A DNA stretch of 64,000 nucleotides, from NCBI GenBank assembly GCA_043810695.1, contig JBDRNV010000002.1, forward strand, positions 5,015 through 69,014, written 5' to 3'. The DNA comes from Nanobdellota archaeon. GTDB taxonomy: Archaea > Nanobdellota > Nanobdellia > Pacearchaeales > GW2011-AR1. Of this stretch, positions 41,789 through 56,774 are shown one piece after another (within the stretch, counting starts at the first letter, position 1; every line of letters starts with the position of its first letter). The notes beneath the pieces are model-generated. The model did not search any database. It had not been told where the DNA came from and worked only from the letters and a program-made list of their open reading frames with translations. The translations under genes were made by a program, and so were the position numbers.

Positions 41789-41809
41789 TTAAAAATTTAT
41801 TATTGCCTT

Positions 41810-43216: not shown

Positions 43217-43411
43217 ATATTTTTTCTTTAATTATGAAAAAAAAGGGTTGAATAATTACTCTTAGTTGCTCTGATTGAAAGGAGAGCACAGCGTGGCAAA
43301 ATCAGAAGGATTTTGCGTTCAGAATTCAGATGTTATTGATATTAACTCCTAAGTAGTAAGTCCTCCAAAGATTTATAAAGATAAGGTTTACACTGAATAT
43401 AAGAGATTAAA

Positions 43412-43774
43412 ATGGATAGAACAAATATTATAATTGCATTATCCCAGCATCAAGATATACAGAAAGATGTTGATGCTTTAGTATGTAGAATAACTGAAAT
43501 TGGAAAAAGAAATCCAATGGTTGATAGGCTTACAAACGTTATTGATGCTGAAAAAAAAGTAATAAACTTTATTAACGATTCTGAAAAAATTTGGAAAGAT
43601 ACAAATAGGGCAGGGTTATATGCTTCTGCACATATAAAAGATTATATTATTTCTTTTAAAGAATATGAAAGATTATGGGCTTCAAGAAAAAAGGAAGGAA
43701 CTCCGGAAAAGGATTGGTATAAGATGCAAATTGAATTAGCTGAATATATTAGCAATTTTTCGTTGAATATATAA
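43412..43774 (+). CDS. hypothetical protein
   Basis: 120-aa ORF. Confidence 0.3.
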   Translation: MDRTNIIIALSQHQDIQKDVDALVCRITEIGKRNPMVDRLTNVIDAEKKVINFINDSEKIWKDTNRAGLYASAHIKDYIISFKEYERLWASRKKEGTPEKDWYKMQIELAEYISNFSLNI

Positions 43775-43800
43775 AATTAAGAGAAATTCCACCAAGCTGG

Positions 43801-46800
43801 TTAAAGATACTTTTTCATAACCTGGTTTAATAAATTAATCCTCTGTTTTATTAATCCGGCTTTTTTGTCATCCCAATTAAACCTTAAATTTTTTATTAGT
43901 TGTTCTATTCTAATCAATTCACTTCTTAATTCTAACACAATTTTATTTTCACCTAATTTTTTCTTAACTTCTTTATAATTTTTCAAAATTTCATTATAAG
44001 GCTTTTCCACTTCTACATATTTCGCTCTCTCTACATTTGCCTCATTAATTGATTTTTCTATTACTTCTTCTTTAATCAACTTTGGTCTAGTCATGCTAAT
44101 ATTAGGATATTTAGCTATTATTGGCTGTAATGCAGAATCAATATTGTTTAAAACAGCTTCTAATTTTACAAAATCACCACTAATTAAAATATCACAAGCT
44201 TTTTTATAATTATATTCTAAATCTTCGTAATTAAGAATAGACCCTCTTAAATCTATATTGTATTGTCTTAAAACATCTAATTGATATCTTATATCTTCAA
44301 CTTTATTACTGTAATAATTATACCTCTTTAATTCCTCATCACTTAATCTCTTTGTTGCATGCAGTATTGGCCTGACAACCATAAAATAAGGCCTGCCTTT
44401 ATTATATTCTGCATTGACAAACATCCCTGTACCAACAGGAGCCCTTACCAATGCGCCAGAGATTTTTTCACCAAAATTATCCTTAATTCTATTTAAGTCA
44501 TTTTCATAACGAGTACGCATTTGAATTTCTGTAGAAATATTAGCTTTTATTTCACCAATAAAGTCGCTTGAAACCTGCGATATTAAAACCATTCCAATTC
44601 CCCATTTTCTGAACTCTCTTATACCTCTTTCAATTTGTACAAATCCTTTTCCTTTACCTCCAAATTTCTCAAGCAATCTATGGACTTCATCATAAACTAA
44701 AAGTACTTTTAATTTATCGCTTTCTGTAGGTTGTAATGCGAAAATTTCACGAACAGTATTAGCAATAAATAAATCCATAGCATCTGGTTCAAGTTTGTTT
44801 AGACAATAAATTGTTATACTGCCTTCTTTTCCTTCTTTATTTTTTTCTCTTAATAAATCTCTAACATTTATTTTTTCTCTTGGATCTTCAATCATCTCAA
44901 TTTTTCCTGAAAACGATCTTGCAGCATTGTTAGTTAATCCAAATTCTGCATATTGATTAAGCATTTTTGGTTCTTGGCACTTTTTTAAAAACCCTGTCCA
45001 TTGTGCAGAAGGATCAAATACAATAACATGAGTGCCCCTCATTAAAGCTCCTTCACAAATTGCTTGTGCGCAGATAGTTTTTCCGCTGCCTGTTGAACCA
45101 GATACAATAGTGTGTAATTTCAAAGATTCTAAATTAACATAGGCTTTTTTATCTGATTCTGCAATTTTTCCAATTATGGCGCTTCTTAAACCAGGTTTTG
45201 GTAATAGATTATAATCAATGTCAACTTTATATTTTAAAGCTTCTTTTCTTTTTTTCTCCATTAGTTTTCTGTAATAGATTATTCCGCTTGTTGTTAAACC
45301 TGCAAGTATTAAGAATAAAGCATAATAAGTTAATTTTATTCCTAAAAACTTTCGAGTTTTTAAGAAATCTAGAGCAACCTGAAAAATATTTTTTTTAATC
45401 TCAAATGTATCAATAGCATCGGTTAATTTATCTCCATCATAAATAACTACTGCTTCTATGAGATATTTTCCTTTAGTTAGAAGAGATAATGGTTGTATTG
45501 TTTTTTGAGTTGAACTTGTTGAATAAAACTCTGCAAAATCAGAATCTTGTGCTACTACCTCTCCTTTATAATTTCTAACTGTATAATCAATTAAAGCCTC
45601 TATTTTTGTCATTTTTCCTAAATTAATCAGTTGTGTTGTTAATAATATGCCTCCATCCTGTGTTATTGTAAGAAATTGAACATTAGCATTTAAGAGCTGG
45701 TCCTCTTCTGTTAATTCTTCTATATTCAGAGTAACTGGAAATTTAACTTTTTTATTTAAATTAATAGCTTCATTAACAGCATCAATAACCATGTTGCCCA
45801 CATATGTTTTAATTTCAACATTGCTAGGAATTTTAACAAATATTTTTACTATTTCTGTTCCAAATCCTGCCAGATTAATTTCTTTTTTTTCAAAATCAAT
45901 AAATTCAGCAACACCACCATCATCACTAATTTTAAATTTAATGTTTTCAGTAATTTTGTTTATAAATTTAAGAGTGTATTCTCTGTTTTCTCCTGGATGA
46001 AGTGTTGCTGTCATCAACGTGGTTTCTATTCTAAACTCATCTGTTTCATAAATGCCTTTTTCTGTTAAACCTTCACCTGTTTCATTATCAAGACCAAAGC
46101 ATCCAGGACATACTTCTGTTAATGCAAATGCTCCAATTTTTTCATCTTTGTCGAAATCTACAGAAGCTGTATAAATTGTTTCATTTAATATCATTCCACT
46201 TTCTTGATCATAACCAATCCAATCACTATCAACACAAATTTTATTTTCAAAATCCCAGCTAGGACAATGAAGAATCATTAAATTGTTAATATCAACCTTC
46301 AAATTTTCGACTAAATTTCTATAATTAAAACTAATTGTCTTAGGATAAAGTTGATTATTATTAGAAATAACAGCTAAGGTTTTTACTTTTATTGGTTCTA
46401 TGTCCACTGGAAGCTCTTGTGAAATAGCAGGGCTTTCTCCAAATGCTGTAATAAAACCAGTTATATCCTGATCAAAAAGAACATCATGATAAGCAACACT
46501 ATCACCTGATAATTCTGGATTTTCTGTATTTTTAATAATTACATTATATTCTCCAGAATCAATATCTTTTGAATAATCTCCATTTGGCGGTGTGCTTGCA
46601 AATGAAAAAGATTTTCCTTGTATTAATGAATTAATATCAAAACTTGCAATCTTGCCTTTTTCTAAATAATCAACGTCTTTTATACTACCACTAAATTTAA
46701 TTTTATCAGCAAATGTAAATTCAAATGTTCTTTCAGCAGAATTACTATTTTCATCTACAGCTGAGAAAACTAATTTATGTTTTTTATCTTTATCAACAAG

Positions 46801-49050
46801 TGTTGTTGACAGTTCTTCAGATTGCCACACATCTACAAATTTAGCTTGATCTGTATCATAATAAGTATCATGGTTAAAACTAACTGGTATAGAAGTTCCA
46901 TTTGGAAAGGTTAATTGTCCACTACCAGAAGTTGTTCCAGTTACATCTCTTGTTGTAACAGTTATTTCAATAAACTTAATTAAATTATCTTGTTTTTGCC
47001 AATCACCTGTATCTAAAAAAGGATCAATAATAGGAGGTGTTATATCTTTATATTTAATTACTTCACGAACAACTTTTTCTAAATCAAGAATAGTCCCATC
47101 TGCATTATATGTTAATTTAATTCTTGCATCATATTTTCTACCATCTTCTAAATTTCTAGATTTTTCACCAAGATAAGGATAACATTTTATTATGGGAGAT
47201 GATTTATAAGTTAAATCTTGTCCGTAAAAACAAGATTCCTCATTACCTGCTTTATCTATTATTAAAATATTACTAAAATTAGTTATATTAGAAGTTTTAT
47301 CAACTGTGCCTAAATATGCTTTTGTTTCTATATTAATGGGCTGTGGATTATTTTTATCATATTCCTCATATGGTGGTAAAGGTGTTAAAGTTAAATTTAA
47401 ATCAAGAACTCTTAAAGTAAAAGAAACTGTTTTTTCATATGTTGAATAGCAAACACTTGTTCCAAAAAAACAAGGAAGAATTTTTATATTAATTAAATTA
47501 TTTCCAGAGGATAGATTTTTAGAAGTAATTTCTAGAGTTTTTTTACCACCGTTATTACTAACAGTAATTTTATTATAATTATAATCTAGAAAACTCCTCC
47601 CCCCTGAGAAATTAAAATCAAAAGCCATCTCGCCATTATTAGTTATTGTTATACCTGGTAATCTTGCTTCTGAATCTGTTAACACATATTGGTCTGGATA
47701 AGGATTAGGACTAAAACTAAAATCAATTTGTGGAATTAAATTAACATTCAATACAACGCTTGCTCCAGGTATATCAACACCTGATTTTTTAGCTTTAAAT
47801 GTTATTGTACATTGCGGATTTGTAATACCTGATAAACTTCCTGTAAACTTTACAGTTAATGGAAATTGTTGAGTTCCTGATAATTCCCTATCTTCTAAAT
47901 TAAAAGTTTCTAAACCACTAATCTCAAAATTTAAATTTCTACATTTTTCTTCCACAATATATTCCAATTCAACATCTGTTAATTTATTAATCATTGTTGC
48001 TATTAAATTTGTACGTAAGATAACACTTTTTCCCACCCCTGATTTTAAATCTAAGGGGTTATTATCCAAGGTAAGTGAAAGTGTATATGTATTTTGATTA
48101 ACTTCTTTTTGTCCTAATCCCCCATCTTTACAATTTGAATTTACGTAACCAGCTCTACCTCCAGAAACATCAATTAAACTTTTTATTGTATCATTACTTT
48201 TACTAGATTCAATATAATTTATTATAACAAAACCACCACTACCTCCACCACTACAAACACCATCAAAACCAGAATCATATTGTCCATTACCTCCTTTAAC
48301 ACTAATAAAACCTGATATTGCTAATTTAGATGTAGCTATACTTATTTTACCACCACTACCACCACCTGCAACATGATAACCCTCTTTTCCTCCATTTCCT
48401 CCATTAGCTAGAATTGAACAACCTAAATCAATATTTACTTCTGACGCAGAAATTTCTATTTTTCCTCCACCATTTCCCCCACTTGGTTGATTTAAATAAA
48501 GTGAACAACTACTTAATCTTCTAGGTTCTCCACCTCCTCTACCATAAGAACAATAATTTTGAATACCTCCTTTACTTCCAGGAAAAATATCTACATCAGA
48601 TGTACAGTGCCAACAACCATTTCCTCCATCATTAACAAAACCAGAACCACCACAAGCCCGCGCAGTACTACAACAATTTTCAGCACCACAACCATCTATT
48701 CGTGCAACTCCTCCTTTGTAACCCTTACCACTAGCATCTATTTTAGAATTATAAGAAAGACTAAGTTTGTTAACATATATTTTAAAGTTTCCTTCTAAAT
48801 TACCACCTTGTAAATTAAGCTCTGCATTTGGCGCATCAATAATACATTCACCAGGTGTATCTCCAAGATATTCTGTAGAAACTGTTACACCTGATTTAAT
48901 ATTTATTATGGTTGTACCTGCTGGAATAAATAATTTACCAGAACAAGTGGTAGTTGAAACAGTATAAGTCTGCGCACTAACATTTTGCACAGAAGCAACT
49001 AAAAAAATTATAAAACTTATTAGAAATATAAAAATTATTTTATTTTTCAT
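43801..49050 (-). CDS. giant fusion protein: secreted Gly-rich beta-helix + Ig-like ectodomain, one TM helix, cytoplasmic HerA/FtsK-type P-loop ATPase
   Basis: Signal peptide ..VQNVSAQ; GGNGG/GGGSGG repeats; TM 'YYALFLILAGLTTSGIIYY' (~45271-45330); Walker A 'GSTGSGKT' (~45076-45099); Walker B 'LLVYDEVHRL'; 'REFRKWGIGMVLISQ' HerA-like. Confidence 0.7.
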   Translation of the reverse strand: MKNKIIFIFLISFIIFLVASVQNVSAQTYTVSTTTCSGKLFIPAGTTIINIKSGVTVSTEYLGDTPGECIIDAPNAELNLQGGNLEGNFKIYVNKLSLSYNSKIDASGKGYKGGVARIDGCGAENCCSTARACGGSGFVNDGGNGCWHCTSDVDIFPGSKGGIQNYCSYGRGGGEPRRLSSCSLYLNQPSGGNGGGKIEISASEVNIDLGCSILANGGNGGKEGYHVAGGGSGGKISIATSKLAISGFISVKGGNGQYDSGFDGVCSGGGSGGFVIINYIESSKSNDTIKSLIDVSGGRAGYVNSNCKDGGLGQKEVNQNTYTLSLTLDNNPLDLKSGVGKSVILRTNLIATMINKLTDVELEYIVEEKCRNLNFEISGLETFNLEDRELSGTQQFPLTVKFTGSLSGITNPQCTITFKAKKSGVDIPGASVVLNVNLIPQIDFSFSPNPYPDQYVLTDSEARLPGITITNNGEMAFDFNFSGGRSFLDYNYNKITVSNNGGKKTLEITSKNLSSGNNLINIKILPCFFGTSVCYSTYEKTVSFTLRVLDLNLTLTPLPPYEEYDKNNPQPINIETKAYLGTVDKTSNITNFSNILIIDKAGNEESCFYGQDLTYKSSPIIKCYPYLGEKSRNLEDGRKYDARIKLTYNADGTILDLEKVVREVIKYKDITPPIIDPFLDTGDWQKQDNLIKFIEITVTTRDVTGTTSGSGQLTFPNGTSIPVSFNHDTYYDTDQAKFVDVWQSEELSTTLVDKDKKHKLVFSAVDENSNSAERTFEFTFADKIKFSGSIKDVDYLEKGKIASFDINSLIQGKSFSFASTPPNGDYSKDIDSGEYNVIIKNTENPELSGDSVAYHDVLFDQDITGFITAFGESPAISQELPVDIEPIKVKTLAVISNNNQLYPKTISFNYRNLVENLKVDINNLMILHCPSWDFENKICVDSDWIGYDQESGMILNETIYTASVDFDKDEKIGAFALTEVCPGCFGLDNETGEGLTEKGIYETDEFRIETTLMTATLHPGENREYTLKFINKITENIKFKISDDGGVAEFIDFEKKEINLAGFGTEIVKIFVKIPSNVEIKTYVGNMVIDAVNEAINLNKKVKFPVTLNIEELTEEDQLLNANVQFLTITQDGGILLTTQLINLGKMTKIEALIDYTVRNYKGEVVAQDSDFAEFYSTSSTQKTIQPLSLLTKGKYLIEAVVIYDGDKLTDAIDTFEIKKNIFQVALDFLKTRKFLGIKLTYYALFLILAGLTTSGIIYYRKLMEKKRKEALKYKVDIDYNLLPKPGLRSAIIGKIAESDKKAYVNLESLKLHTIVSGSTGSGKTICAQAICEGALMRGTHVIVFDPSAQWTGFLKKCQEPKMLNQYAEFGLTNNAARSFSGKIEMIEDPREKINVRDLLREKNKEGKEGSITIYCLNKLEPDAMDLFIANTVREIFALQPTESDKLKVLLVYDEVHRLLEKFGGKGKGFVQIERGIREFRKWGIGMVLISQVSSDFIGEIKANISTEIQMRTRYENDLNRIKDNFGEKISGALVRAPVGTGMFVNAEYNKGRPYFMVVRPILHATKRLSDEELKRYNYYSNKVEDIRYQLDVLRQYNIDLRGSILNYEDLEYNYKKACDILISGDFVKLEAVLNNIDSALQPIIAKYPNISMTRPKLIKEEVIEKSINEANVERAKYVEVEKPYNEILKNYKEVKKKLGENKIVLELRSELIRIEQLIKNLRFNWDDKKAGLIKQRINLLNQVMKKYL

Positions 49051-49185
49051 GAATCATCCTCTTTTTAAATAAGATTATAACTAAAATATACTCGATTAAT
49101 TTAAATAGTTTTGGTTTTTATATACAATTAGATTAACAAAACTTAAAAACTTAAATATACATCTTGCTATAAAGGTTAAATAAAG

Positions 49186-51723
49186 ATGCCAAATAAAAAA
49201 AAGAGTGGAAAAATAAGAGTTTTAAATAATATAACAAAAAAAAATCAAGATACTAAAACAAAATCAAAAATTCCTCTAATTTTATTATTGTTATTTTTTG
49301 GTGCTATTATAATCTTATTATTTTATATTCAGTATAAACCAAAAATGACAGGATTTGCTGTATGTGTTGTAGATGGTTTTTGTAATAGCCCAATTGAAGA
49401 TTATTTTAACTGTCCAACAGATTGTTTACCTGCATGTCCTAATGCAGTATGTGAAGTTCCAGCAGAATACAGTTGTGGTGGTGCAGCCTGTGTTGCAGAT
49501 TGCGGTGCTTGTGGTACAATAGCACTCTCTATTACTTATCCAAGTAATAATCAGTATGTTCCTTCTTCTTCAATAACCGTTACAGGAACTTCAAATAATA
49601 CAAATGAGGTAAGAATTAAACTTAATTTAGACCCTGATAGTCGAGTTTGTTTTGGAGCTGTTGGAACTTGTAACTCTTGGAATAAAATTTTATTTTTGAA
49701 TCTTGGAAGTAATACCATAGAAGTTTCCGCTAGTAACGGAGGTGAACTAATACCTTATCTTTCAAGAACAGTATATTATGATCCAACACCCCCAACAATT
49801 ACTATAAATTCACCTTCAAATGCATCTAATGTAAGTTCTAGTCCAATAAATATTAATGGTGTAGCTAGTGATAATGTTAATCTAAATAAAGTTGAATTAA
49901 GAGTTAATGGTAAAACATGGGAATTAGCTTCTGGAACAACTTATTGGAATAGAGGAATGTATTTAGATAGTGGAATTAATTATATAGAAGCAAGAGCAAC
50001 AGATGGTGCTGGAAATACTCAAATCGCAGCTATAACTCTTTACTATAATGTTCCACCAATTCCAACAAATCTTATTGCAAACACAATATCAACAACACAA
50101 ATAAATTTAAGTTGGACAGATGTAGATTCTGAATTAGATTATTATATTGAAAGATCTTCAGATGGAATTAATTTTGCTCTAATTGATGTTGTTAATGCAA
50201 ATATTATCTCTTATTCAAGTACAGGCTTAACAGTTAATACACAATACTGGTATAGAATAAAAGCTCATAATAATGCAGGAAATTCTTCTTATTCAGGTAT
50301 CGCTACAGCCACAACTTTTGCAGTACCTCCTCCTTCTGTAACTCTAATTACTCCCTTAGATAATAAAATATCTCAATCTCCAGTAAGTTTTTCTTGTAGT
50401 TCTAGCAACACCGACTTAGTTAGTATGTCTTTGTATGGACAATGGAACACAGGATGGCATTTAGAAGAAACTCAAAGTTGTACTCTTGGACAAGCTTGTT
50501 CAATTAATTTTATTAATAAACCAATTTCCGACGGAACTTATAATTGGAACTGTCAAGCATGTACATTAGAAGTTTGTGGATTTGCTATTTTTAATAGAAC
50601 AATTATAATAGACACAACAAATCCAGTTGTATCTTTTATTGATCCAACACCTTTAAATGATGAATTTGTAACTAGAACCTGGATTAATATGTATGTTTCT
50701 GTTACAGAATTAAATGAAGCAAATATAACTTTTAATTTATATGATTCAAATTCAATACGAATAAATTCAACTACTTTTTTTACTTCTTTTGATAGAAGTA
50801 TAGCTTTTATTAATTTAAGTTATGGAAATTATAGTTATGATGTGGTTGTAATTGATAGAGCAAATAATATTGGTAGTACAGAAAGAAGAATTATACGTCT
50901 GCAAGAACCAGTTCCAGTTCCAGGTGCTCCTAACATAACTTTTGTTTATCCAACACCTGATAATTTTAAATCACAATCTGAAACAAGTGCTATTATTAAT
51001 GTAACTGTAAATGATACTGTTAGTGAAATAAAAAATTGTACATTAAGATGGAATAATGCTAATTTTTCGATGACTAAAGTTGGTTCTGGTTTAAATGTGA
51101 GTTGTTATCTTCAAAAAACTTCTTTATTGCCTGGAAGTTATATTTACTCTGTTTATTCTACAAATTCGCAAAATATCACAGGAATGAGCGAAGAAAGACT
51201 TTTGCATGTTGTAGGTGAGGATATAACCACAGGAGAACCTGTATTTGAATTGCTTACTACAGTTATTTCTGGAAGTAATTTTGTTAACGAGAGTATTTTA
51301 TCTTTAATTGAAATTAGTACAGGAACTTCAGAACCAATTACTGTTGGATTAAGTTATATTATAATGGACGAAAATGAAATGCCATTTTATAAAGAAAATG
51401 ACAATATTAAAATAACAGGTGGCTTAATAATAAATAAATGGTTTACAGCTCCAGCTGAAAATGGAAATTATAGGCTAAGAGTTATTTTAGATTATAAAAA
51501 TCTAGAAAAAGAATCAGAAGATAGATTTAGTGTTGGTTCTAGAATTATACCAAAAATAGAACCTAGCATTTGGAATGTTATAATATCAGTAATTATTATT
51601 ATTGCAATTGTTTTTGGATTAAGATTATTAGGTCCAATCGGTGCATTGCATGAGAAAAAGAAAAAATCAAATTCATCTGAGAATAATAAATCAGATACTT
51701 CTTCAGAGAAAAAATCTTCCTAA
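49186..51723 (+). CDS. bitopic cell-surface protein with Cys-rich, Ig-like and fibronectin-III domains
   Basis: N-terminal TM, 'CNSPIEDYFNCPTDCLPACPNAVC', FN3 'INLSWTDVDSELDYYIERSSDG..YWYRIKAHN', C-terminal TM. Confidence 0.65.
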   Translation: MPNKKKSGKIRVLNNITKKNQDTKTKSKIPLILLLLFFGAIIILLFYIQYKPKMTGFAVCVVDGFCNSPIEDYFNCPTDCLPACPNAVCEVPAEYSCGGAACVADCGACGTIALSITYPSNNQYVPSSSITVTGTSNNTNEVRIKLNLDPDSRVCFGAVGTCNSWNKILFLNLGSNTIEVSASNGGELIPYLSRTVYYDPTPPTITINSPSNASNVSSSPININGVASDNVNLNKVELRVNGKTWELASGTTYWNRGMYLDSGINYIEARATDGAGNTQIAAITLYYNVPPIPTNLIANTISTTQINLSWTDVDSELDYYIERSSDGINFALIDVVNANIISYSSTGLTVNTQYWYRIKAHNNAGNSSYSGIATATTFAVPPPSVTLITPLDNKISQSPVSFSCSSSNTDLVSMSLYGQWNTGWHLEETQSCTLGQACSINFINKPISDGTYNWNCQACTLEVCGFAIFNRTIIIDTTNPVVSFIDPTPLNDEFVTRTWINMYVSVTELNEANITFNLYDSNSIRINSTTFFTSFDRSIAFINLSYGNYSYDVVVIDRANNIGSTERRIIRLQEPVPVPGAPNITFVYPTPDNFKSQSETSAIINVTVNDTVSEIKNCTLRWNNANFSMTKVGSGLNVSCYLQKTSLLPGSYIYSVYSTNSQNITGMSEERLLHVVGEDITTGEPVFELLTTVISGSNFVNESILSLIEISTGTSEPITVGLSYIIMDENEMPFYKENDNIKITGGLIINKWFTAPAENGNYRLRVILDYKNLEKESEDRFSVGSRIIPKIEPSIWNVIISVIIIIAIVFGLRLLGPIGALHEKKKKSNSSENNKSDTSSEKKSS

Positions 51724-51728
51724 TAGAA

Positions 51729-51760
51729 CTATTGGTTTTCACTGATGTCTTCCGATGTCT
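51729..51760. repeat. copy B3 of the aEF-2 3' end
   Basis: ctattggttttcactgatgtcttccgatgtct; closer to B1 than to the genuine end. Confidence 0.65.
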
Positions 51761-51852
51761 TTTTTCTGAAAAACCATTGTAGGGTTTTATTGATTTTTCT
51801 GGAAGTACTTTTTTTAGTATATTTTTTAAATAACAATTTATTATAGAATTAT

Positions 51853-52062
51853 ATGAAATTGAAAAATATTAAATCAAAAGAGGTTATTAAGATTTTAGAA
51901 AAGAATGGTTTTGAAATTAAAAGACAAACAGGAACACATGTTATTTTAAAGAATAATGGAAAAATGGTTGTTGTTCCAATTCATCATAAAACTATTCCAA
52001 CAGGAACTTTAAAAAGTATAGAAAAACAATCAGAAATTAATTTTAGAGAAATAATCGGGTAA
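51853..52062 (+). CDS. hicA: HicA-family toxin
   Basis: 'KSKEVIKILEKNGFEIKRQTGTHVIL' YcfA/HicA pattern. Confidence 0.75.
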   Translation: MKLKNIKSKEVIKILEKNGFEIKRQTGTHVILKNNGKMVVVPIHHKTIPTGTLKSIEKQSEINFREIIG

Positions 52063-52276
52063 TCATTAAGGGTTCTTCCTTTTTCAAAAGTTCTTTTTTT
52101 TCAGGGGCTTCTTCCAACAAAAGCCTAATAGCATTTTTGAGATTATCAAAAGCCTTATCAATAGTCTCTCCAAAATCACCCACTCCCAATTCAACAGCTT
52201 CAACTACAAAAATTTTAGTTCCATCACTTAATTCTTCTTCATGTATAGAAACATTGCAGGATAATTTTTCTTCCAT
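52043..52276 (-). CDS. hicB: HicB-like antitoxin
   Basis: 'FVVEAVELGVGDFGETIDKAFDNLKNAIRLLLEE' UPF0150/HicB-like; convergent with hicA and overlapping it. Confidence 0.55.
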   Translation of the reverse strand: MEEKLSCNVSIHEEELSDGTKIFVVEAVELGVGDFGETIDKAFDNLKNAIRLLLEEAPEKKELLKKEEPLMITRLFL

Positions 52277-52306
52277 ATTTAAAATAAAATTCCAGAATAT
52301 TTAAGG

Positions 52307-52338
52307 TTATTGGTTTTCGGCCAAACCCTTCCTCTGCT
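52307..52338. repeat. copy B2 of the aEF-2 3' end
   Basis: ttattggttttcggccaaacccttcctctgct; 23/32 vs 53380-53411. Confidence 0.65.
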
Positions 52339-52366
52339 TTGACTTTTAGGCGAAGTAACTAAAGGC
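52339..52366. repeat. degenerate copy of the near-palindromic element
   Basis: minus strand GCCTTTAGTTACTTCGCCTAAAAGTCAA vs rps7-locus GGCTTTCATTACTTCGCCCAAGCTTGGTCAA. Confidence 0.6.
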
Positions 52367-52402
52367 TTATTGGTTTTCACTGAGGCCTTTACGTTGCCTC
52401 AT
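52367..52402. repeat. copy B1 of the aEF-2 3' end
   Basis: ttattggttttcactgaggcctttacgttgcctcat; 27/36 vs 53380-53415. Confidence 0.75.
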
Positions 52403-52413
52403 TCTAAAATCAA

Positions 52414-52713
52414 CTAAGAAAGTAGCTCATCTAATTTTTTTCTAATCATCTCTTCTATTTTTTCACCAAACATTTTTGCTACAAAAGGTAATTTTCCTTC
52501 TAAACTAATTTGCTTATCTTTTAAATGAATTTGTCCACTAGTTTTAAATCCCATAACTTTCATACTAAAATTCATTTGAGTACAGTCAAGATTCCAATTT
52601 AATTGAGAGTCACTTATTTTATCAGAATATTCTTCTTGTAACTCTGGCAGAAGTTTATTTATTCGTTCATATGTTTCTTGAATTGTTAAATTATGAAGAT
52701 AATCTATTCTCAT
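52414..52713 (-). CDS. hypothetical protein (faint resemblance to PHA-granule-region proteins)
   Basis: 99-aa ORF; 'GKLPFVAKMFGEKIEEMIRKKLDELL' tail. Confidence 0.3.
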   Translation of the reverse strand: MRIDYLHNLTIQETYERINKLLPELQEEYSDKISDSQLNWNLDCTQMNFSMKVMGFKTSGQIHLKDKQISLEGKLPFVAKMFGEKIEEMIRKKLDELLS

Positions 52714-52796
52714 ATTTTTATATAAAAACTTTTGTTTATAAGATTTATGAATTATTTTTCTTTAACAAAATTTTGCTGATTTTCTGATTGATGAAA

Positions 52797-53378
52797 TTAT
52801 TTATTTTTAATTATTTTAATAAATCTACAAGCGTCATAAATATTTTCTGCTATAAACTTTGCCCTGGTTTTTTCAATTTCTTTCTCATTTCTTTTTACAA
52901 GTATTCCTGTCATTTTAAGTTTTTCTGCAAGTAGTAAATCAGATTCTCTATCACCTATAACATAAGAGTTCACAAAATCTATATCATATTCTCCCTTCAA
53001 AGAATCTATCAAGCCTGTTTTTGGCTTTCTGCATGTGCAAATTTCTTCTGAAGTATGTGGACAAAAAAGCCATTTTTCAATTGTAATACCATGTTTACCA
53101 AATTTATCTGTTAAGATATTCTCAATCTTATTGTATAATTCTATTGTTAATGTACCCCTATTAATTGCATCTTGATTGGTGATAATGAAAATAGTATAAC
53201 CCATATTAATCATTTTCTTAAGGCCTTTAATCGCATTTGGTAAAATATGTAATTTAGAAATTGAATCTACATCAGCATCTGAAGTATTTTTCCTTCTTAA
53301 ACTGCCGGGTTCTTCTACAATTGTTCCATCCCTGTCTAAAAATATCGCTTTTATGGAAAATTTTTTATTATTTATCAT
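52797..53378 (-). CDS. HAD-IIIA phosphatase (GmhB/histidinol-phosphatase-like)
   Basis: 'IFLDRDGTIV', 'CPH...CTCRKPKTG' Zn loop, 'VIGDRESD'. Confidence 0.7.
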   Translation of the reverse strand: MINNKKFSIKAIFLDRDGTIVEEPGSLRRKNTSDADVDSISKLHILPNAIKGLKKMINMGYTIFIITNQDAINRGTLTIELYNKIENILTDKFGKHGITIEKWLFCPHTSEEICTCRKPKTGLIDSLKGEYDIDFVNSYVIGDRESDLLLAEKLKMTGILVKRNEKEIEKTRAKFIAENIYDACRFIKIIKNK

Positions 53379-53379
53379 T

Positions 53380-55569
53380 TTACTGATTCTCGCTCAAACC
53401 CTTACGTTGCCTTATCTTTCTTACAATGTCTGGCTGAAGGCTTGCAGGAACTTTTTCAAACAGCTGGTCTAACAAAGACGATGTTCCTCTTCCTTCTGTC
53501 GCGCTTCTTAAATCACTGCTCCACCCAATCATTTCTGCGACAGGAAGTTTTGCTTTCATGTCTGCTTGTGTACCTTCTTGTCTTACTTCAAGCATCTGTC
53601 CTCTTTTTCCTCCAACTAATTTTGTAACAGCACTTAAGAATTTATCAGGCATTTCTATAAGATAAATCTGTATTGGTTCAAAAAGATAGGCATTTGCTTT
53701 TTTCATTGCTTCTACAATTGCTTCTCTTACAGCAGGATAAACCTGTGCAGGCCCTCTGTGAATTGCATCTTCGTGAAGTCTTGTATCTACAAGTGAAACC
53801 CTAAGTTTTATACAGGGTTCTCTTGCTAAAGGTCCCTGGTTAATAACCATTTCAAATGCATCAAGAACCATTTCAATTACTTCTCCTATATGAACCTCTC
53901 CTCTTGTTTCATCAAGAAAAATATTTCCTTTGTAAATATCTCTTACATTTCGTATTGTATCACCAGACCATCCTAATTTTGAAAGAACATTTGCAATTTC
54001 CTCATTTTTTTTCTTAATTCTTCCTTCTCTTAATTCTCCGCTTTTTATTGCCTTGTATACTTCATCTTCAAGAGGCTCAACTTTCATATAAAAGCTGTTA
54101 TGTTTATTAGGGCTTCTTCCTTCTATTTCAGGAGATTCTCGACCTATTGTTTCTCTGTAAACTATGATTGGAGAAGAGGTTTTAACATCAAGTCCTTTTT
54201 CTGTTTTAATTCTGTTTTCTATAATCTCAAGATGAAGTTCTCCCATTCCAGACATAAGGCTCTCTCCTGTTTGCTCGTTTATTTCTATTTTTATGGAAGG
54301 GTCTTCTTTTGCAACTTTTTTTAGAATCTCAACAAGCTTTGGAAGGTCAGATGTTTTTGTAACTTCAATTGCTTTTGTTATAACTGGTTCAAAAATATGT
54401 TTGAGTTCTTCAAAAGAAGTTTCTGGTTCAATTGTTACTGTTTCTCCTGCTTCACCAGTAACACCTGCTATTGCCAAAACATTTCCACATCCTATTTCTT
54501 CAAGCTGTTCAGGCTTTATTCCATTATAAATAAATACCTGCTGTATTTTCTGTCTTTTTTTTGCAAGATTTAGATAGACTTCCATCCCTTGTTTTAATGT
54601 TCCTGAGAATAATCTTCCAGCTGAAATCTCTTTTCCAGACTTTGGGTCTATTACAATTCTTGTTATAACAAATGCTGGTTTTCCTTTTGGATCGCAGTTT
54701 ATAAGGGATTTTCCAAAATCACTATTTAAATCTCCTCTCCATATTTTTGGAATTCGATATTTTTGTGCTTCCAGAGGGCTTGGAAGGTGCTTAACAACCA
54801 TATCCAGAAGAACTTCATAAAGAGGAGCATTTTTCCAGCACCATTCTTTTCTTTCAGCATCTGACATTTCATAAAGATTGAAAATATCTTTAAAAGTTAT
54901 TTTTTTCTTTTGCATAAAAGGAACAGAAAGCGCCCAGTTTTCTCTTGCAGAACCAAAAGCAACGCTTCCGTCTTTTATATCAACTTCCCACTTTTTCTTG
55001 AATTCAGATTCTGCAATATTATTAATTAATTTATTGAAGTCTTCATATATTTTTATGAATCTTTGCTGCATCTGCTCTGGCGTTAGTTTAAGCTCTTTAA
55101 TTAGCCTGTCTACTTTATTGATGAACAAAACAGGTTGTACCCTTTCTCTTAATGCTTGTTTTATAACAGTCTCTGTCTGAGGCATTATTCCTTCAACAGC
55201 ACATACAAGAACAATTGTTCCATCAATAGCCCTCATCGCTCTTGTAACATTTCCAGAGAAATCCACATGTCCTGGTGTATCAATAAGATTAATCAAATAC
55301 TCATCTCCATGAAATTCATGAACCATTGAAACGTTTGCAGCATCAACTGTCAATAATCTCTCCTGTTCGTCTGCATGCTGCCAGGTTGCCATACCTGCTT
55401 CCAAATCTCCTGCAGATTTTACAGCCATAAATCCAGAAGCAGCGAGAAGATTATCTGTCATTGCCGTCTTGCCATGATGAATATGTGCAGAAGTTGCAAT
55501 ATTACGAATATATTTTTGTTCTCTGCTAAGTCTCTGAATTTTCTTGAACTGTGTTTCTTTCTCTACCAT
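53380..55569 (-). CDS. fusA: translation elongation factor aEF-2
   Basis: 'SAHIHHGKTA', 'DTPGHVDF', diphthamide loop 'HEDAIHRGPAQV'. Confidence 0.9.
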   Translation of the reverse strand: MVEKETQFKKIQRLSREQKYIRNIATSAHIHHGKTAMTDNLLAASGFMAVKSAGDLEAGMATWQHADEQERLLTVDAANVSMVHEFHGDEYLINLIDTPGHVDFSGNVTRAMRAIDGTIVLVCAVEGIMPQTETVIKQALRERVQPVLFINKVDRLIKELKLTPEQMQQRFIKIYEDFNKLINNIAESEFKKKWEVDIKDGSVAFGSARENWALSVPFMQKKKITFKDIFNLYEMSDAERKEWCWKNAPLYEVLLDMVVKHLPSPLEAQKYRIPKIWRGDLNSDFGKSLINCDPKGKPAFVITRIVIDPKSGKEISAGRLFSGTLKQGMEVYLNLAKKRQKIQQVFIYNGIKPEQLEEIGCGNVLAIAGVTGEAGETVTIEPETSFEELKHIFEPVITKAIEVTKTSDLPKLVEILKKVAKEDPSIKIEINEQTGESLMSGMGELHLEIIENRIKTEKGLDVKTSSPIIVYRETIGRESPEIEGRSPNKHNSFYMKVEPLEDEVYKAIKSGELREGRIKKKNEEIANVLSKLGWSGDTIRNVRDIYKGNIFLDETRGEVHIGEVIEMVLDAFEMVINQGPLAREPCIKLRVSLVDTRLHEDAIHRGPAQVYPAVREAIVEAMKKANAYLFEPIQIYLIEMPDKFLSAVTKLVGGKRGQMLEVRQEGTQADMKAKLPVAEMIGWSSDLRSATEGRGTSSLLDQLFEKVPASLQPDIVRKIRQRKGLSENQ

Positions 55570-55637
55570 TTTTTTCTCCAGAGGAGAGAGTGGACGGACT
55601 TTGTTCGTACTCTTTCAGCCATATTATATTGAATCAA

Positions 55638-55661
55638 AAAATTGTTTTTAAATGTTTTTGG
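55638..55661 (-). promoter_or_regulatory. conserved BRE/TATA promoter motif upstream of aEF-2
   Basis: minus strand CCAAAAACATTTAAAAACAATTT-type motif. Confidence 0.55.
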
Positions 55662-55708
55662 TGTTGAATAATACAAGAATTTAAAAAGAAAATAAAGAAA
55701 ATACATCA

Positions 55709-56089
55709 ATGAAAAAAATATTAATACAAGATAGATTTTCTACTGATAGTCATATTGATTCATTAAAGAATCTTTTAGAGTTGGAGTTTAAGGATAAACA
55801 AATTGAATTCAATCTTGTTTTCTGTTTGAGAGGCGCTAAATTTCCTATAATCGATTACAATTTAATTATTTCACACCCACCTATTTTTGATAATTGCTGT
55901 GTTCCATTGATTGAACAAGCTGTTAGAAAGAATGTTCCTGTTGTTTTTAGATATCATACTAAATATCCTCATGGTAATGAAATAGAAGCCATAGCTCAAA
56001 ATCTTGGGATGGATATAAACTATAGTAGTAGTGGAAATTGGAGAGAAGTATATGGTAATATAATCAAAAAGTTTATAGAAAAAGATTAA
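55709..56089 (+). CDS. hypothetical protein (cassette ORF, antisense to the ribosomal operon)
   Basis: 126-aa ORF whose stop abuts the rps7-end copy. Confidence 0.4.
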   Translation: MKKILIQDRFSTDSHIDSLKNLLELEFKDKQIEFNLVFCLRGAKFPIIDYNLIISHPPIFDNCCVPLIEQAVRKNVPVVFRYHTKYPHGNEIEAIAQNLGMDINYSSSGNWREVYGNIIKKFIEKD

Positions 56090-56114
56090 TTATCGTGCGC
56101 TATCTACCTGCTTT
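56090..56114. repeat. degenerate copy of the rps7 3' end
   Basis: ttatcgtgcgctatctacctgcttt vs ttatcgtgccgagtcggcttgcttt at 56154-56178. Confidence 0.6.
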
Positions 56115-56153
56115 ACTTTGACCAAGCTTGGGCGAAGTAATGAAAGCCGACAA
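56115..56153. repeat. 39-nt near-palindromic element (CCAAGCTTGG core)
   Basis: ACTTTGACCAAG|CTTGGGCGAAGT (10/12 arm pairs) plus aatgaaagccgacaa. Confidence 0.7.
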
Positions 56154-56774
56154 TTATCGTGCCGAGTCGGCTTGCTTTTCAGATTCAATTTTCTTTTTAA
56201 CAGCAAAGCTTTCTTGATTTCCTTCAGAAGCAAGCATTATTTCTTCTGCAATTCCCTGAGCAAGATCTTTTTTCTTGCCGAATGCTTTTTCAGAAGCACC
56301 ATGAATAATATGCTTTAAAGCAAGATTTACTCTTCTTAAAGGAGATACGTCAACTGCCTGGGGATATCTTGCTCCACCATATTCTATTACTGTTATTTCA
56401 TCTCTTGGTGCAGAATTTTCAACAGCTTTTATGAGAATCTCTATAGGATTTTTTCCTGTTTTTTTTGCTATTTGTTCAAAAGCATCAAGTACAATCCCTG
56501 TATTTTTTGAATATTTTCCAGTTGAAGTCCCAACCATAAGTTTATGTTTTTTTCCTCTATGCCCTGCAACACCTATTTTATTTATCAGCCTTTCAACTAT
56601 ATTGACTTTTGTCTGCCCGAATTTCTGAACATTTCTTCCATGGCTTTTCAGAGCCAGCTTTGGAGTTAGGTTTATCGCATCCTTAAGTCCTACATCTTTT
56701 ACCTGAATTCCTTCTGTCTCATATAAATCAAAAATTTTGAATGTAAGTGGCTGTATGTTTTTTTGTTCTGTCAT
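56154..56774 (-). CDS. rps7: 30S ribosomal protein S7 (uS7)
   Basis: 'VNIVERLINK', 'IEYGGARYPQAVDVSP.RR' conserved uS7 blocks. Confidence 0.9.
   Translation of the reverse strand: MTEQKNIQPLTFKIFDLYETEGIQVKDVGLKDAINLTPKLALKSHGRNVQKFGQTKVNIVERLINKIGVAGHRGKKHKLMVGTSTGKYSKNTGIVLDAFEQIAKKTGKNPIEILIKAVENSAPRDEITVIEYGGARYPQAVDVSPLRRVNLALKHIIHGASEKAFGKKKDLAQGIAEEIMLASEGNQESFAVKKKIESEKQADSAR

Follow-up and report, generated by a model that had tools for sequence, protein, structure and literature searches.

We analyzed a 64,000-nt stretch of DNA (hereafter the window) from Nanobdellota archaeon contig JBDRNV010000002.1 (GCA_043810695.1, positions 5,015–69,014). The source organism is a tiny DPANN archaeon, and its genome is of metagenome type, with 30% G+C and abundant weak repeats. 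Behind the aEF-2 gene, whose encoded C-terminus (IRxRKGL[AS]ENQ*, the asterisk denoting a stop) is kept in about 155 relatives, lies a stacked array in which copies of the gene's own end separate successive units (Table 1). An earlier note, made from the sequence alone, had claimed four copies delimiting three units. This held only in part, because a fifth, degenerate copy (B2b) brings the array to five copies and four units. Two of the four units (one palindromic, one hairpin) are short non-coding spacers rather than gene cassettes, and the window's end copies lie solely on the strand of the gene and solely downstream of it.

Table 1. Features of the aEF-2 array and the S7 unit, with coordinates in the window.
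Feature	Coordinates	Strand	Description
aEF-2, anchor gene	53380..55569	-	729-aa ORF, EF-G/EF-2 Pfam domains
Live repeat copy	53380-53412	-	Last 33 nt of aEF-2; genuine-end peptide KIRQRKGLSENQ*
Cassette 1	52400..53401	-	With one 11-mer, the 1013-nt insert
HAD-IIIA phosphatase	52797-53378	-	Pfam PF13242/PF08645
PHA_gran_rgn 99-aa ORF	52414-52713	-	Pfam PF09650
Copy B1, putative former live EF-2 end	52367..52399	-	Encodes RQRKGLSENQ* (B1 peptide in full comparison, RMRQRKGLSENQ*); live end in L170
Short unit 1, degenerate palindromic spacer	52339..52366	-	GCCTTTAGTTACTTCGCCTAAAAGTCAAAG..
Copy B2	52307..52346	-	Encodes KSKQRKGLAENQ*
Cassette 2	51811..52306	.	Holds hicB-like antitoxin and hicA toxin
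hicB-like antitoxin	52043-52276	-	Protein related to L031 HicB
hicA toxin	51853-52062	+	PF07927, E = 1.7e-20
Copy B2b, newly found, putative decayed former EF-2 end	51787..51808	-	GTACTTCCAGAAAAATCAATAA
Short unit 2, hairpin spacer	51765..51786	-	AACCCTACAATGGTTTTTCAGA.., 'GCCCTGCGATGGTTTC..GAAACACA' family
Copy B3, most distal and most decayed	51729..51764	-	RKKTSEDISENQ*
S7 gene	56154-56774	-	Anchor of its own unit
S7 unit	56090..56153	-	40-nt spacer with palindromic element, then 24-nt S7-end copy (KQVDSAR*)

In a 36-nt comparison frame (genuine end, 53380-53415; B1, 52367-52402; B3, 51729-51764), B1 matched the genuine end at 27/36 positions (P = 9e-10 per position; P = 1.5e-6 corrected for 1700 downstream positions) and B2, taken from 52307, at 25/36 (corrected P = 9.6e-5), including 19 of the last 24 nt. 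B3 was not significantly similar to the genuine end (18/36) but was to B1 (24/36, corrected P = 5e-4; 20/24 over the last 24 nt only, corrected P = 1.2e-5). By comparison, the strongest background match to the query in the whole window (both strands, 128,000 positions) was 21/36. The repeats are real and far beyond chance. The coordinates and identities that the earlier note gave for these four copies held, as did its claim that B3 is closer to B1 than to the genuine end; lack of significant similarity, which it named as a refuting outcome, did not apply to B1 and B2, and B3 was significant via B1 and not via the genuine end. Every copy is terminated by a stop codon on the minus strand and, collectively, the copies share the coding pattern ...RKGL[S/A]ENQ*. 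The B2b peptide ('..YFQKNQ*') scored 4 in the peptide scan.

The distal part of the array has counterparts elsewhere. In eight other species, a true EF-2 end followed by a short unit aligned in register with B2b, the next 22 nt and B3, and short unit 2 aligned with units behind the live EF-2 end in L086, L082, L028, L030, L046, L107, L112, and L121. B3 carries a cross-species motif (ACATCGGAAG...) common to the second copies of L028, L030, and L046, with a related variant (TCGTCGGAGGG) in L043. In L092, the true end and its spacer agreed with B1 and its spacer at 55/62 positions (~89%, counted by eye on printed sequences), compared with about 77–80% nucleotide identity between the EF-2 genes of the window and its nearest relatives. 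Several relatives still show the state of B2b, hairpin spacer and B3 right at their live end.

At the edge of cassette 1, 22 nt belong to a synonymous EF-2 end that it brings along (GGGTTTGAGCGAGAATCAGTAA). HAD begins 1 nt past the EF-2 stop (TAA-A-ATG), as previously claimed. Read by eye, this leaves HAD without room for a promoter of its own, and therefore requires co-transcription with EF-2 and translation by re-initiation; TATA-like boxes lie about 25–30 nt upstream of the 99-aa ORF and of hicB (also by eye, on the printed sequence). The earlier note had left open whether HAD was a cassette or a resident gene. No HAD homologue was found behind EF-2 in 80 GTDB loci, nor any sign of one in 80 extra metagenome loci, and the gene was absent from the post-EF-2 position in 140 related Pacearchaeota loci; homologues elsewhere lie inside a kinase-HAD-aldolase operon. 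Together with its absence from the allele described below, this resolves HAD plus the 99-aa ORF as a cassette and not a resident gene.

A natural allele (L170, one 1.1-kb contig only) is missing precisely the 1013-nt HAD block; it reads ...DIVRKIRQRKGLSENQ*, and its live EF-2 end is the B1 sequence. It was 99.5% identical to window positions 51811-52399 and then continued directly into EF-2 coding sequence. The switch from EF-2 context to B1 context falls inside an 11-nt stretch that the genuine end (53402..53412, minus strand) and B1 (52389-52399) have in common (AGGCAACGTAA, gene orientation); the two alignment blocks overlap inside the shared repeat, and the 19 nt upstream of the 11-mer match the window exactly. 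The 11-mer is therefore the inferred crossover patch. Identity drops at about 51811-51823, no more than 15 nt from B2b. The genuine end and B1 carry nine synonymous differences despite the 99.5% identical flanks of the two alleles. Logan assemblies use k = 31, and 11 nt of shared identity is too short to explain a de Bruijn chimera; moreover, the cassette-bearing allele (L168) was found in the sequencing run that also gave L170. A natural allele without the newest cassette shows that the cassettes are real insertions. L170 fits precise excision of the cassette as well as it fits the state before insertion.

We consider homologous allele replacement a very unlikely source of this pattern. Here related strains would swap the entire 3′ region of EF-2, along with the insertions behind it, by double crossover (left arm, the EF-2 body; right arm, a distal end copy), the first duplication being an unrelated accident. 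Such replacement needs no special enzyme and accounts for the transfer of units too small to circularize and for copies resembling other lineages' genuine ends, and the EF-2/EF-1alpha interval is already a hot spot of gene content. However, in the only case that is resolved, L170 and the window are identical over the 30 nt before the first difference between the end and B1, so the imported DNA begins at the repeat and not deeper in EF-2; a donor about 20% divergent would be expected to bring roughly 6 mismatches in 30 nt (0.8^30 is about 0.001). Nor does replacement explain the origin of the duplication and its exact in-register extent. A sliding-window EF-2 comparison gave no mosaic signal, with no relative close enough; nucleotide identity between the window's EF-2 and its nearest relatives is about 77–80%.

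Among relatives, the canonical neighbor of EF-2 is EF-1alpha, from about 0 to 5.3 kb behind it, and the interval is a general hot spot for gene-content change. A syntenic block shared by all relatives, also named beforehand as a refuting outcome, was tested for and not found. Extra EF-2-end copies recurred in about 30 of 140 relatives, always behind the gene and on its strand. Across the 140 loci, the ENQ* pattern occurred downstream 37 times on the same strand and once on the other; the upstream counts for the two strands were 7 and 0 (20 vs 1, and 2 and 0, in an earlier locus set). Distal copies matched their own live end at 13.5/18 positions and other species' ends at 13.2/18 (median rank 0.55), and kept reading frame and amino acids. 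Since they are no closer to their own end and the frame is kept, they appear to be displaced or imported genuine ends rather than in-situ duplications that are decaying, and their being as far from the live end as other species' orthologues argues against simple target-site duplication. For the nearly identical pairs (17/18) in L028, L064, L082, L121, and L127, in-situ duplication fits equally well.

Differences between close relatives were also evident. At 98.3% EF-2 identity, L151 is empty whereas L064 has 1442 nt including hicBA and a copy after the stop; the closely related L141 and L144 have unlike content directly after the EF-2 stop, and L048 and L052, likewise close, differ by an 885-nt insert. 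Insertions after EF-2 without a bounding copy occur in L052 and in the distal 960 nt of L064. The hicB and hicA genes of cassette 2 are convergent with a 20-nt overlap, and hicB-hicA cassettes with a bounding EF-2-end copy also occur in L031, L064, and L067. Further such cassettes are present in L047, L149, and L152; no bounding copy was seen in the contig-truncated L047 sequence, the only one of these three inspected.

Artefact or chance, meaning a mis-assembly that concatenated strain variants or a fortuitous AT-rich similarity, is all but excluded. The metagenome-type origin, base composition and repeat content of this genome would favor it. Against it stand the corrected P values (from 1e-6 to 5e-4) and the recurrence of the pattern in 30/140 other loci, where the controls for strand and position came out clean. 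The arrangement was 99.9–100% identical in contigs L001, L164, L168, L171, and L172 from other assemblies (two ENA MEGAHIT, one JGI, one ENA k127, and one Logan), and this agreement argues against an assembly artefact.

The end-copy pattern is not confined to aEF-2, being found in the 64-kb window also behind S7, SMC, PCMT, DnaG, a nuclease, and prs/tRNA-Leu. The nuclease locus has the same architecture (copies at 3432, 2163, and 1039), so the earlier likening of the two stacked arrays held. When the 7-aa tails of every ORF were compared with downstream stops, 38 hits reached ≥5/7 vs 1 in the reverse-complement control, and a scan with 30-nt ends produced 12 hits at ≥22/30, vs 0. S7 units also occur in L006, L007, L018, and L087; in 4/4 unit-bearing relatives the S7 serine codon is AGC at the live end and TCY in the copy, both types being common native variants. 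The two prs/tRNA-Leu copies differ in the spacer between prs end and tRNA piece (24 vs 8 nt), and thus do not derive from in-situ duplication.

The palindromic element of short unit 1, ACTTCG(C/T)CCAAGCTTGG(T/C)C, is also present behind S7 (56116-56138) and SMC (26448-26470), and copies of its core are more alike within this genome than are the copies in other genomes. Its presence behind three different genes, with like copies within the genome, suggests that the core moves between anchors; such movement, which is only a possibility, is not explained by a purely homology-addressed model. For the short units alone, 'copy-hairpin-copy' could conceivably be a functional 3′-UTR or DNA structure and not an insertion scar. 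It might be a landing pad, or a hairpin around the stop codon that stabilizes or terminates the mRNA, and this reading can stand beside the main model of the gene cassettes. In its favor, the spacer start is complementary to the preceding K-G-L codons, with both sides changing between species (AAAGGC/GCCTTT, AAAGGT/ACCTTT, AGGGA/TCCCT, AGGACTTTCA/TGAAAGTCCT, AAGGTTTGG/CCAAACCTT); short unit 1 opens with 7 nt complementary to the B1 K-G codons. A perfect stem of at least 6 nt was present in 6/16 loci with units vs 10/122 without, fold z-scores were -3.0 in L082, -3.0 in the L092 homologue of short unit 1, and -4.6 in L043, and units are kept at the live end in at least eight species. However, the window units fold no more stably than shuffled sequence (z = -1.2 for short unit 1, then -1.1 and -0.1), neither an RNAalifold consensus structure nor an Rfam match was found, stem position varies by locus, and most species have no such units.

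In the best reading, which we regard as likely, units carrying a synonymous mimic of the live gene end were inserted there serially, in Campbell fashion. Horizontally acquired units would have piled up chronologically, each entering at the then-live aEF-2 3′ end through a single Campbell-type crossover inside the last 6–11 codons. The EF-2-proximal edge of each unit would consist of its own synonymous codons, an attP-like mimic or 'address label' that would turn into the new EF-2 end and leave the essential gene intact, while the old end would be displaced downstream and decay there. The oldest step would have been B2b, the hairpin spacer and B3, followed by the hicBA cassette arriving with B2, the palindromic short unit with B1, and finally HAD and the 99-aa ORF with the present end. 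This order, with B1 as the previous live end and the most distal B2b and B3 as the most decayed, is inferred, as are the circular intermediate and the identity of the catalyst. Short units of 51–62 nt are too small for double-stranded circles, which counts against the model, and neither a circular form nor a free element bearing attP turned up; in a degenerate search, viral contigs yielded only two matches, attributed to chance and lying inside genes.

No recombinase was found in cis. Pfam detected no integrase, Cas1, PolB, or transposase in 27 window ORFs, and no recombinase in 143 EF-2/EF-1alpha gap ORFs (only the 25 most frequent families being reported) or in the 20 largest gap ORFs scanned individually; phmmer seeded with a tyrosine recombinase returned one relative (in L130) in 1.79 Mb. 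Because just 64 kb was examined, a trans-acting integrase or Cas1 elsewhere in the genome is not excluded. Candidates for the catalysis are a site-specific recombinase acting in trans and recombination at short homology. Because the pattern recurs at seven or more unrelated gene ends within 64 kb, we lean slightly toward a homology-guided reaction over many dedicated integrases.

A casposase-/Cas1-like or other transposase is the remaining alternative, and an unlikely one. It would make staggered cuts about 20–30 bp apart at the gene end and insert any DNA, whether genes or 27–40-nt hairpin oligonucleotides, new ones always at the gene-proximal repeat, and gap repair would duplicate the target, as for CRISPR repeats and casposon target-site duplications. 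Against it, Cas1, PolB, and transposase were not found in the scanned window or gap ORFs, the gene cassettes are without terminal inverted repeats, repeat length is variable (15–18 to 33, 52, and >90 nt), and most copy pairs are orthologue-like in divergence yet coding; the unequal prs/tRNA-Leu spacers and the synonymous differences between the genuine end and B1 in otherwise near-identical alleles also speak against it. In its favor are a fairly constant short-unit geometry (copy about 24–26 nt, spacer 27–40 nt), two to three tandem short units each in L043, L087, and L121, a palindromic spacer that is possibly two abutting terminal inverted repeats, certain repeat pairs 17/18 or 48/52 identical, and the known targeting of casposons. 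For family-1 casposons the target is the 3′-distal part of aEF-2, and for family 2 it is tRNA 3′ ends, that of tRNA-Leu among them; casposons in tandem arrays have one common target-site duplication, and duplications reach up to 27 nt (PMC4046053, PMC4779613). The N. koreensis casposase integrates DNA of 7 nt to 4 kb and hardly requires terminal inverted repeats (PMC8464041). Within the window, arrays likewise lie both at aEF-2 and at prs/tRNA-Leu.

The last 36 nt of the aEF-2 gene (End) recur downstream in the window, a stretch of archaeal DNA with 30% G+C. An earlier note had placed four copies of this terminus, the genuine one and downstream copies B1, B2 and B3, around a stacked array of units, and the four positions held (see table). 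Under a null model corrected for 1700 downstream positions, End was significantly similar to B1 (27 of 36 positions identical, P = 1.5e-6) and B2 (25 of 36, P = 9.6e-5), as was B1 to B3 (24 of 36, P = 5e-4; 20 of the last 24 nt, P = 1.2e-5), while the match of End to B3 (18 of 36) was not significant. The top unrelated match among 128,000 window positions was 21 of 36. Every copy is closed by a stop codon on the gene strand, the four peptides reading KIRQRKGLSENQ, RMRQRKGLSENQ, KSKQRKGLAENQ and RKKTSEDISENQ before the stop, and all nine positions that differ between End and B1 are synonymous. The same arrangement was present at 99.9–100% identity in contigs from several other assemblies, which together with the significant copy identities confirms the observation.

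The claim of four copies required one addition. A decayed copy, B2b (GTACTTCCAGAAAAATCAATAA, ending in YFQKNQ and a stop), lies between hicA and B3. B2b, the next 22 nt and B3 align in register with a structure that sits at the live EF-2 end of relatives L086, L082, L028, L030, L046, L107, L112 and L121: a true EF-2 end, a hairpin spacer of about 30 nt and a second copy. The array therefore has five copies, ordered End, HAD phosphatase and 99-aa genes (cassette 1), B1, palindromic spacer, B2, hicB/hicA (cassette 2), B2b, hairpin spacer and B3. Past the HicA gene lies the end of a convergent 845-aa surface protein. The interpretation as a stacked array is supported.

Genes, end copies and side features of the window (positions in nt)
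Feature	Position	Strand	Remarks
Nuclease (SNase-like) gene	3423-4175	minus	end copies at 3432, 2163 and 1039
Nuclease end, downstream copies	2163-2203; 1039-1079		first is FLWDRDGKLVLWK; second more decayed
Cys-rich paralogues	4263-4625; 38624-39145		120-124 aa
prs/tRNA-Leu unit	5679-6660		copies at 5679 and 6528; 37-nt perfect repeat of prs (PRPP synthetase) end plus 21-nt partial tRNA-Leu 3' end
tRNA match (Rfam)	20450-20587	minus	138 nt; missed by ARAGORN
RT-16 RNA (Rfam)	23091-23307	plus	76 bits, E = 5e-10; just upstream of SMC
SMC end duplication	26399-27026		copies at 26399 and 26469; last 52 nt repeated 70 nt downstream, 92% identity
PCMT/vapBC	28004-28740		end FVPFVEG-stop copied at ~28711, directly after vapB/vapC (RHH_12 + PIN)
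DnaG primase gene	36964-38127	minus	end copies at 36295 and 36962
DnaG end repeat	36295-36335		78% identity; region 36295-37002
Paralogue within 29-nt direct repeat	38655-39029		repeat 93% identical
EF-1alpha	40443-41738		11.6 kb from EF-2
B3	51729-51760		
B2b	51787-51808		
HicA toxin gene	51853-52062	plus	convergent
HicB-like ORF	52043-52276	minus	
B2	52307-52338		
B1	52367-52402		
99-aa PHA_gran_rgn protein	52414-52713	minus	
HAD-superfamily phosphatase	52797-53378	minus	directly after aEF-2
End	53380-53415	minus	genuine aEF-2 3' end
aEF-2	53380-55569	minus	
126-aa ORF, unknown family	55709-56089	opposite to S7 and EF-2	wedged between S7 and EF-2
S7 end copy	56090-56113		24 nt, KQVDSAR-stop; S7 end is KQADSAR-stop; spacer 40 nt with perfect palindromic element
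Ribosomal protein S7	56154-56774	minus	

The HAD gene, which the earlier note had left as either a cassette or a resident gene, is a cassette. The decisive evidence is L170, a natural allele without cassette 1 (Logan assembly, run ERR2191545). It is 99.5% identical to window positions 51811–52399 and past 52399 passes straight into EF-2 coding sequence, reading DIVRKIRQRKGLSENQ before the stop, so that the nucleotides of B1 form the live end. In L170, B1 is followed by the palindromic spacer, B2, hicB and hicA, and the 1013-nt block of HAD and 99-aa genes is missing. The junction falls within an 11-nt identity (AGGCAACGTAA) common to End and B1. Assuming k = 31 for Logan assemblies, 11 nt is too short to give a de Bruijn chimera. 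Both alleles agree over the 30 nt of EF-2 that precede the first End/B1 difference, which places the start of the imported DNA at the repeat. A cassette-bearing allele (L168) is present in the same run, and both alleles were found in one groundwater-type sample. On the distal side, allele identity drops at ~51811–51823, at most 15 nt from B2b, at the predicted distal edge of the hicBA cassette. The phosphatase is of the HAD-IIIA type (GmhB/histidinol-phosphatase-like), and its relatives elsewhere in DPANN lie inside a kinase-phosphatase-aldolase operon. No HAD or 99-aa homologue followed EF-2 among the first 80 relatives inspected, where the usual next gene is EF-1alpha at a distance of ~0 to 5.3 kb.

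Searches of Pacearchaeota/Nanoarchaeota (DPANN) genomes and metagenomes returned 160 EF-2 loci (140 non-redundant), the closest EF-2 having 88% protein identity. Across the 140 loci, the pattern GARAAYCARTAR (ENQ and stop) had 37 same-strand occurrences downstream of EF-2 and one on the opposite strand, versus 7 and 0 times on the two strands of an equal amount of upstream DNA. At least one extra EF-2-end copy was present in 30 of the 140. Cassettes between the live end and a copy comprised ORFs of 70 aa (L003, also L082), 91 aa (L014), 100 aa (L054) and 208 aa (L024), and hicB-hicA (L031, L064 and L067); the HicA of L067 runs into the end copy (C-terminus EEFMELAENQ and stop). Content behind the stop differed at 98.3% EF-2 identity between L151 (empty) and L064 (1442-nt insert), and the close pairs L141/L144 and L048/L052 also differed directly behind it.

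Other features of these loci were observed in passing. The EF-2 match was split in relatives L020, L029, L031, L057, L064, L067 and L079, with residues 1–50 and 24–729 separated near the P-loop by ~0.5 kb (L029) to ~1.5 kb, which suggests an intein or another insertion in EF-2. In the window, the interval at 40443–51723 contains the cassette array and a PAP2 phosphatase, together with the 845-aa surface protein (Ig/fn3), a protein of 1749 aa and two unknown ORFs, and PAP2 genes also lie within the EF-2/EF-1alpha interval in five relatives. S7 and EF-2 are merely 4–11 nt apart in relatives such as L003 and L035.

In cassette 2, the HicA toxin domain is present (PF07927, E = 1.7e-20), and its 77-aa neighbor has only a weak DUF7387 match and is 39% identical to L031's HicB-like protein. 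Convergent in the window, the two genes are co-directional in L031, L064 and L067. Horizontal transfer of hicBA among relatives L064, L067 and L047 was considered and is unsupported: cassette identity (78–86%) is barely above that of EF-2 (75–78%), and the cassette looks vertically inherited within this clade.

The signature is not confined to EF-2. Comparing the last seven residues of all ORFs with the residues before each downstream stop across ~1.5 Mb gave 38 matches at ≥5/7, versus 1 in a reverse-complement control, and a 30-nt DNA version at ≥22/30 gave 12 versus 0. Within the 64 kb of the window, at least seven unrelated gene ends are used. The palindromic element CCAAGCTTGG sits between the two SMC end copies, and a relB/relE-type (ParE_toxin) pair follows them. 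The NYN-domain gene between the DnaG end and its copy is on the opposite strand, as are the MNT (nucleotidyltransferase)/HEPN-like and Doc-like genes in the nuclease-locus units. Within the prs/tRNA-Leu unit (~800 nt) are a membrane-like ORF of 128 aa and a gene of the YidD family. The vapBC module at PCMT is likewise bracketed by end copies; no vapBC-less allele was found there, the four other contigs with the exact PCMT protein all carrying VapBC.

Besides these loci, relative L048 also shows this SMC-end duplication, at +162. The two Cys-rich paralogues share Cys-rich C-terminal halves, and the direct repeat flanking one of them is unmatched to any neighboring gene end. The 138-nt tRNA match is likely an intron-containing tRNA.

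Some units carry no genes. These short units are G+C-rich, with a repeat of ~24–26 nt and a hairpin spacer of 27–40 nt, and in their first 5–10 nt they complement the K-G-L codons of the end before them, both sides varying between species. Perfect stems of at least 6 nt occurred in 6 of 16 unit loci versus 10 of 122 other loci, and fold z-scores were −3.0 to −4.6 in three relatives and weak in the window. Rfam gave no match in the array (gathering threshold on the whole window; E-value search on 51500–56400), and RNAalifold found no consensus structure in a nine-species short-unit alignment because the stem register shifts between species; the evidence for structure rests on per-sequence stem statistics and single-sequence folds. 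One family, the imperfect palindrome ACTTCGCCCAAGCTTGGTCAAAGT, follows three genes of this genome (S7, SMC and EF-2), and in relatives L006 and L061 it follows S7 or EF-2. Its copies are most alike within a genome, a hint that the element may move between anchor genes. Palindromes are confined to short non-coding units; gene cassettes end directly in an EF-2-end copy without a hairpin.

Distal copies matched their own live end (13.5 of 18) about as well as the ends of other species (13.2; median rank 0.55) and nonetheless retain the reading frame and amino acids. In all four unit-bearing relatives, the S7 serine codon is AGC in the live end and TCY in the copy, both types being common native variants in the clade. 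B1 with its spacer is ~89% identical to the live end and spacer of relative L092, the EF-2 genes being ~77–80% identical. Given this divergence, the S7 codons, the likeness to L092 and the L170 allele, we conclude that the moving unit consists of a mimic of the gene end, that is, a synonymous version of its last codons, plus cargo. Duplication of the target site in situ cannot yield synonymous-only differences between alleles otherwise 99.5% identical, nor can it produce at prs/tRNA-Leu the different spacers between prs end and tRNA piece (24 versus 8 nt) in the two copies.

On this reading, the incoming mimic becomes the working gene end and displaces the old one. Decay grows with distance, as seen for B3 and B2b and for copy 2 at the nuclease locus. 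The direct repeats are exactly mimic-length and in register with the reading frame, the geometry that results when a circular molecule recombines with the gene end in a single crossover. For one cassette, insertion by crossover within the terminal codons, with the mimic brought by the element, is shown; the circular intermediate is inferred, and the catalyst is unidentified. The use of at least seven unrelated ends in 64 kb implies either a trans-acting enzyme that reads a non-sequence cue or a reaction guided by short homology, and we could not decide between them. Sliding-window identity could not resolve a donor-derived EF-2 3' part, all relatives being too distant (just ~78–80% identical).

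Three other readings were rejected. A bulge-helix-bulge intron fails as no pairing brings the would-be splice sites together. Translational bypass is at odds with the stop codon retained in the first copy and with unconstrained spacer lengths. Polymorphic-toxin "orphan" arrays do not apply, EF-2 being no toxin and the repeats covering the last codons only.

Pfam scans of 27 window ORFs (all array ORFs and 23 further ones), of 143 ORFs from EF-2/EF-1alpha gaps (family counts only) and, individually, of the 20 largest gap ORFs detected no Cas1, PolB, transposase or recombinase of the tyrosine or serine type; matches were to ordinary metabolic or housekeeping genes. Seeded with an archaeal tyrosine recombinase, a phmmer search of 1.79 Mb gave a single match, which lay outside the window. 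No cognate integrase in cis was found within the 64 kb. The single match is a recombinase-like ORF (L130:84-998, plus strand, E = 7e-12) directly upstream of EF-2, in the usual place of S7. That contig also has an EF-2-end copy at +408. Among IMG/VR viral contigs, a degenerate EF-2-end pattern sought as the mark of an attP-bearing free element matched twice, both times inside unrelated phage genes.

The genomes of DPANN archaea are tiny and contain few recognizable genes of mobile elements, and little is understood of how accessory genes are acquired. The cassettes offer a concrete route, in which ~1-kb segments enter behind essential genes while rebuilding the gene end, with cargo ranging from toxin-antitoxin pairs to a sugar-phosphate phosphatase and small unknown ORFs. 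As the signature follows seven or more genes of the 64 kb and is present at about one-fifth of related EF-2 loci, end-of-gene cassettes may rank among the main sources of gene-content change here. The loci add a second archaeal superphylum in which aEF-2, a casposon target in Thaumarchaeota, recurrently receives insertions, and end-of-gene duplications could act as a simple annotation-free marker of recent gene gain in metagenome-assembled archaeal genomes. The full-text literature searched contained no prior description of such duplications flanking cassettes in DPANN. A bolder reading, which we consider unlikely, is that Pacearchaeota have a genome-wide integrase-less cassette system, an "integron without attC", in which any small DNA becomes mobile via a synonymous mimic of a conserved host gene's last 6–11 codons and the short units are footprints of a casposase/Cas1-like or unknown ruler-type integrase. 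If so, an address label would let DNA enter, stack and leave behind essential genes (aEF-2, S7, SMC, DnaG, PCMT and others) across species, and the short units could parallel, in living cells, the transition from casposons to CRISPR that has been proposed, at casposons' own target gene.

Among known systems, the repeat and spacer geometry of the short units resembles the repeat duplication of Cas1-type integrases. Unlike in a CRISPR array, the spacers are homologous between loci and species rather than unique, the repeats are non-identical coding ends, and no cas genes were seen. The palindromic spacer invites comparison with REP/BIME-type or MITE-like intergenic hairpin elements, sharing a short G+C-rich imperfect palindrome just past stop codons, several copies per genome and within-genome likeness. 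However, a 24–52-nt duplicate of the coding end of the gene upstream flanks each palindrome here, the adjacent arm complements that end, only three copies occur in 64 kb, and no RAYT or other transposase was identified.

Integron gene-cassette arrays, among them those of archaeal integrons (Ghaly et al. 2022, PMC9668308), are similar in their small, mostly one- or two-gene cassettes without mobility genes, richness in toxin-antitoxin modules, proximal-end acquisition with order reflecting history and, as inferred from sequence alone, expression of the first cassette (HAD) from the upstream promoter. They differ in that IntI, attI and attC are lacking here (no Phage_integrase match in scanned window ORFs, no phmmer match in the window and no attC palindrome at each cassette's 3' end), in that each cassette is bounded by copies of the last codons of the host gene, and in that there are many small arrays of mixed cassette orientation behind housekeeping genes rather than one platform. 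Tycheposons and cargo-only satellites are described in Prochlorococcus (preprint 10.1101/2020.12.28.424599). Tycheposons target tRNA/tmRNA genes and encode tyrosine recombinases; a streamlined genome without classical transfer machinery, islands that grew as a few conserved sites were used for integration again and again, and partial target copies delimiting cargo modules, some without integrase, are points of likeness. Here the targets are mostly protein-gene ends, and no recombinase was found.

Family-1 casposons target the aEF-2 3' end in Thaumarchaeota and family-2 casposons tRNA-Leu, leaving the gene intact and forming tandem arrays (PMC4046053, PMC4779613), and one casposase can insert nearly any DNA between 7 nt and 4 kb in length (PMC8464041). 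Our loci share the aEF-2 and tRNA-Leu targets, insertion in the 3'-distal part with the gene left intact, direct duplication of terminal nucleotides and tandem arrays separated by a shared repeat. In contrast to casposons, neither Cas1 nor PolB was found in scanned ORFs, and there are no terminal inverted repeats: none at the ends of cassettes 1 and 2 rose above the AT-rich background, the best pair at the hicBA ends (24 nt, 71% complementarity) being one of 48 such in 3 kb. Casposon direct repeats are mostly perfect (median 15 nt; 13 bp in N. koreensis, 14 bp in M. mazei; PMC4046053, PMC4779613, PMC8464041), whereas ours measure 15–33 nt or more, and most are non-identical and differ at synonymous positions; a short identical target-site duplication of 13–15 bp does not fit End and B1, which differ at 9 of 36 positions in alleles with 99.5% identical flanks. 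Casposons are also much larger and polymerase-encoding, while cargo here is 0.3–1.2 kb and many other gene ends are used.

Integrase elements that enter a gene's 3' end rebuild it from attP, accrete in tandem and give rise to integrase-less derivatives (cis-mobilisable elements, CIMEs); tyrosine-recombinase elements occur at tRNA-Leu of M. mazei (PMC4779613). Our units differ from them in lacking an integrase inside or nearby, in their tiny size (0.3–1.2 kb with one or two genes, or 50–60 nt with none), in the variety of protein-gene ends used (at least seven in 64 kb) and in a short identical core (11 nt in the resolved case). They are alike in the attL/attR-like direct repeats that flank each unit, restoration of the target gene's end by an element-borne copy, reuse of one site to give a stacked array, an empty-site (or excised) allele with its junction inside the repeat (L170), and a partial tRNA 3' end within the prs/tRNA-Leu repeat. 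The best fit is to the general class of integrative elements that target gene 3' ends, accrete in tandem and have derivatives lacking an integrase, of which this would be an unusually miniaturized, multi-site DPANN version.
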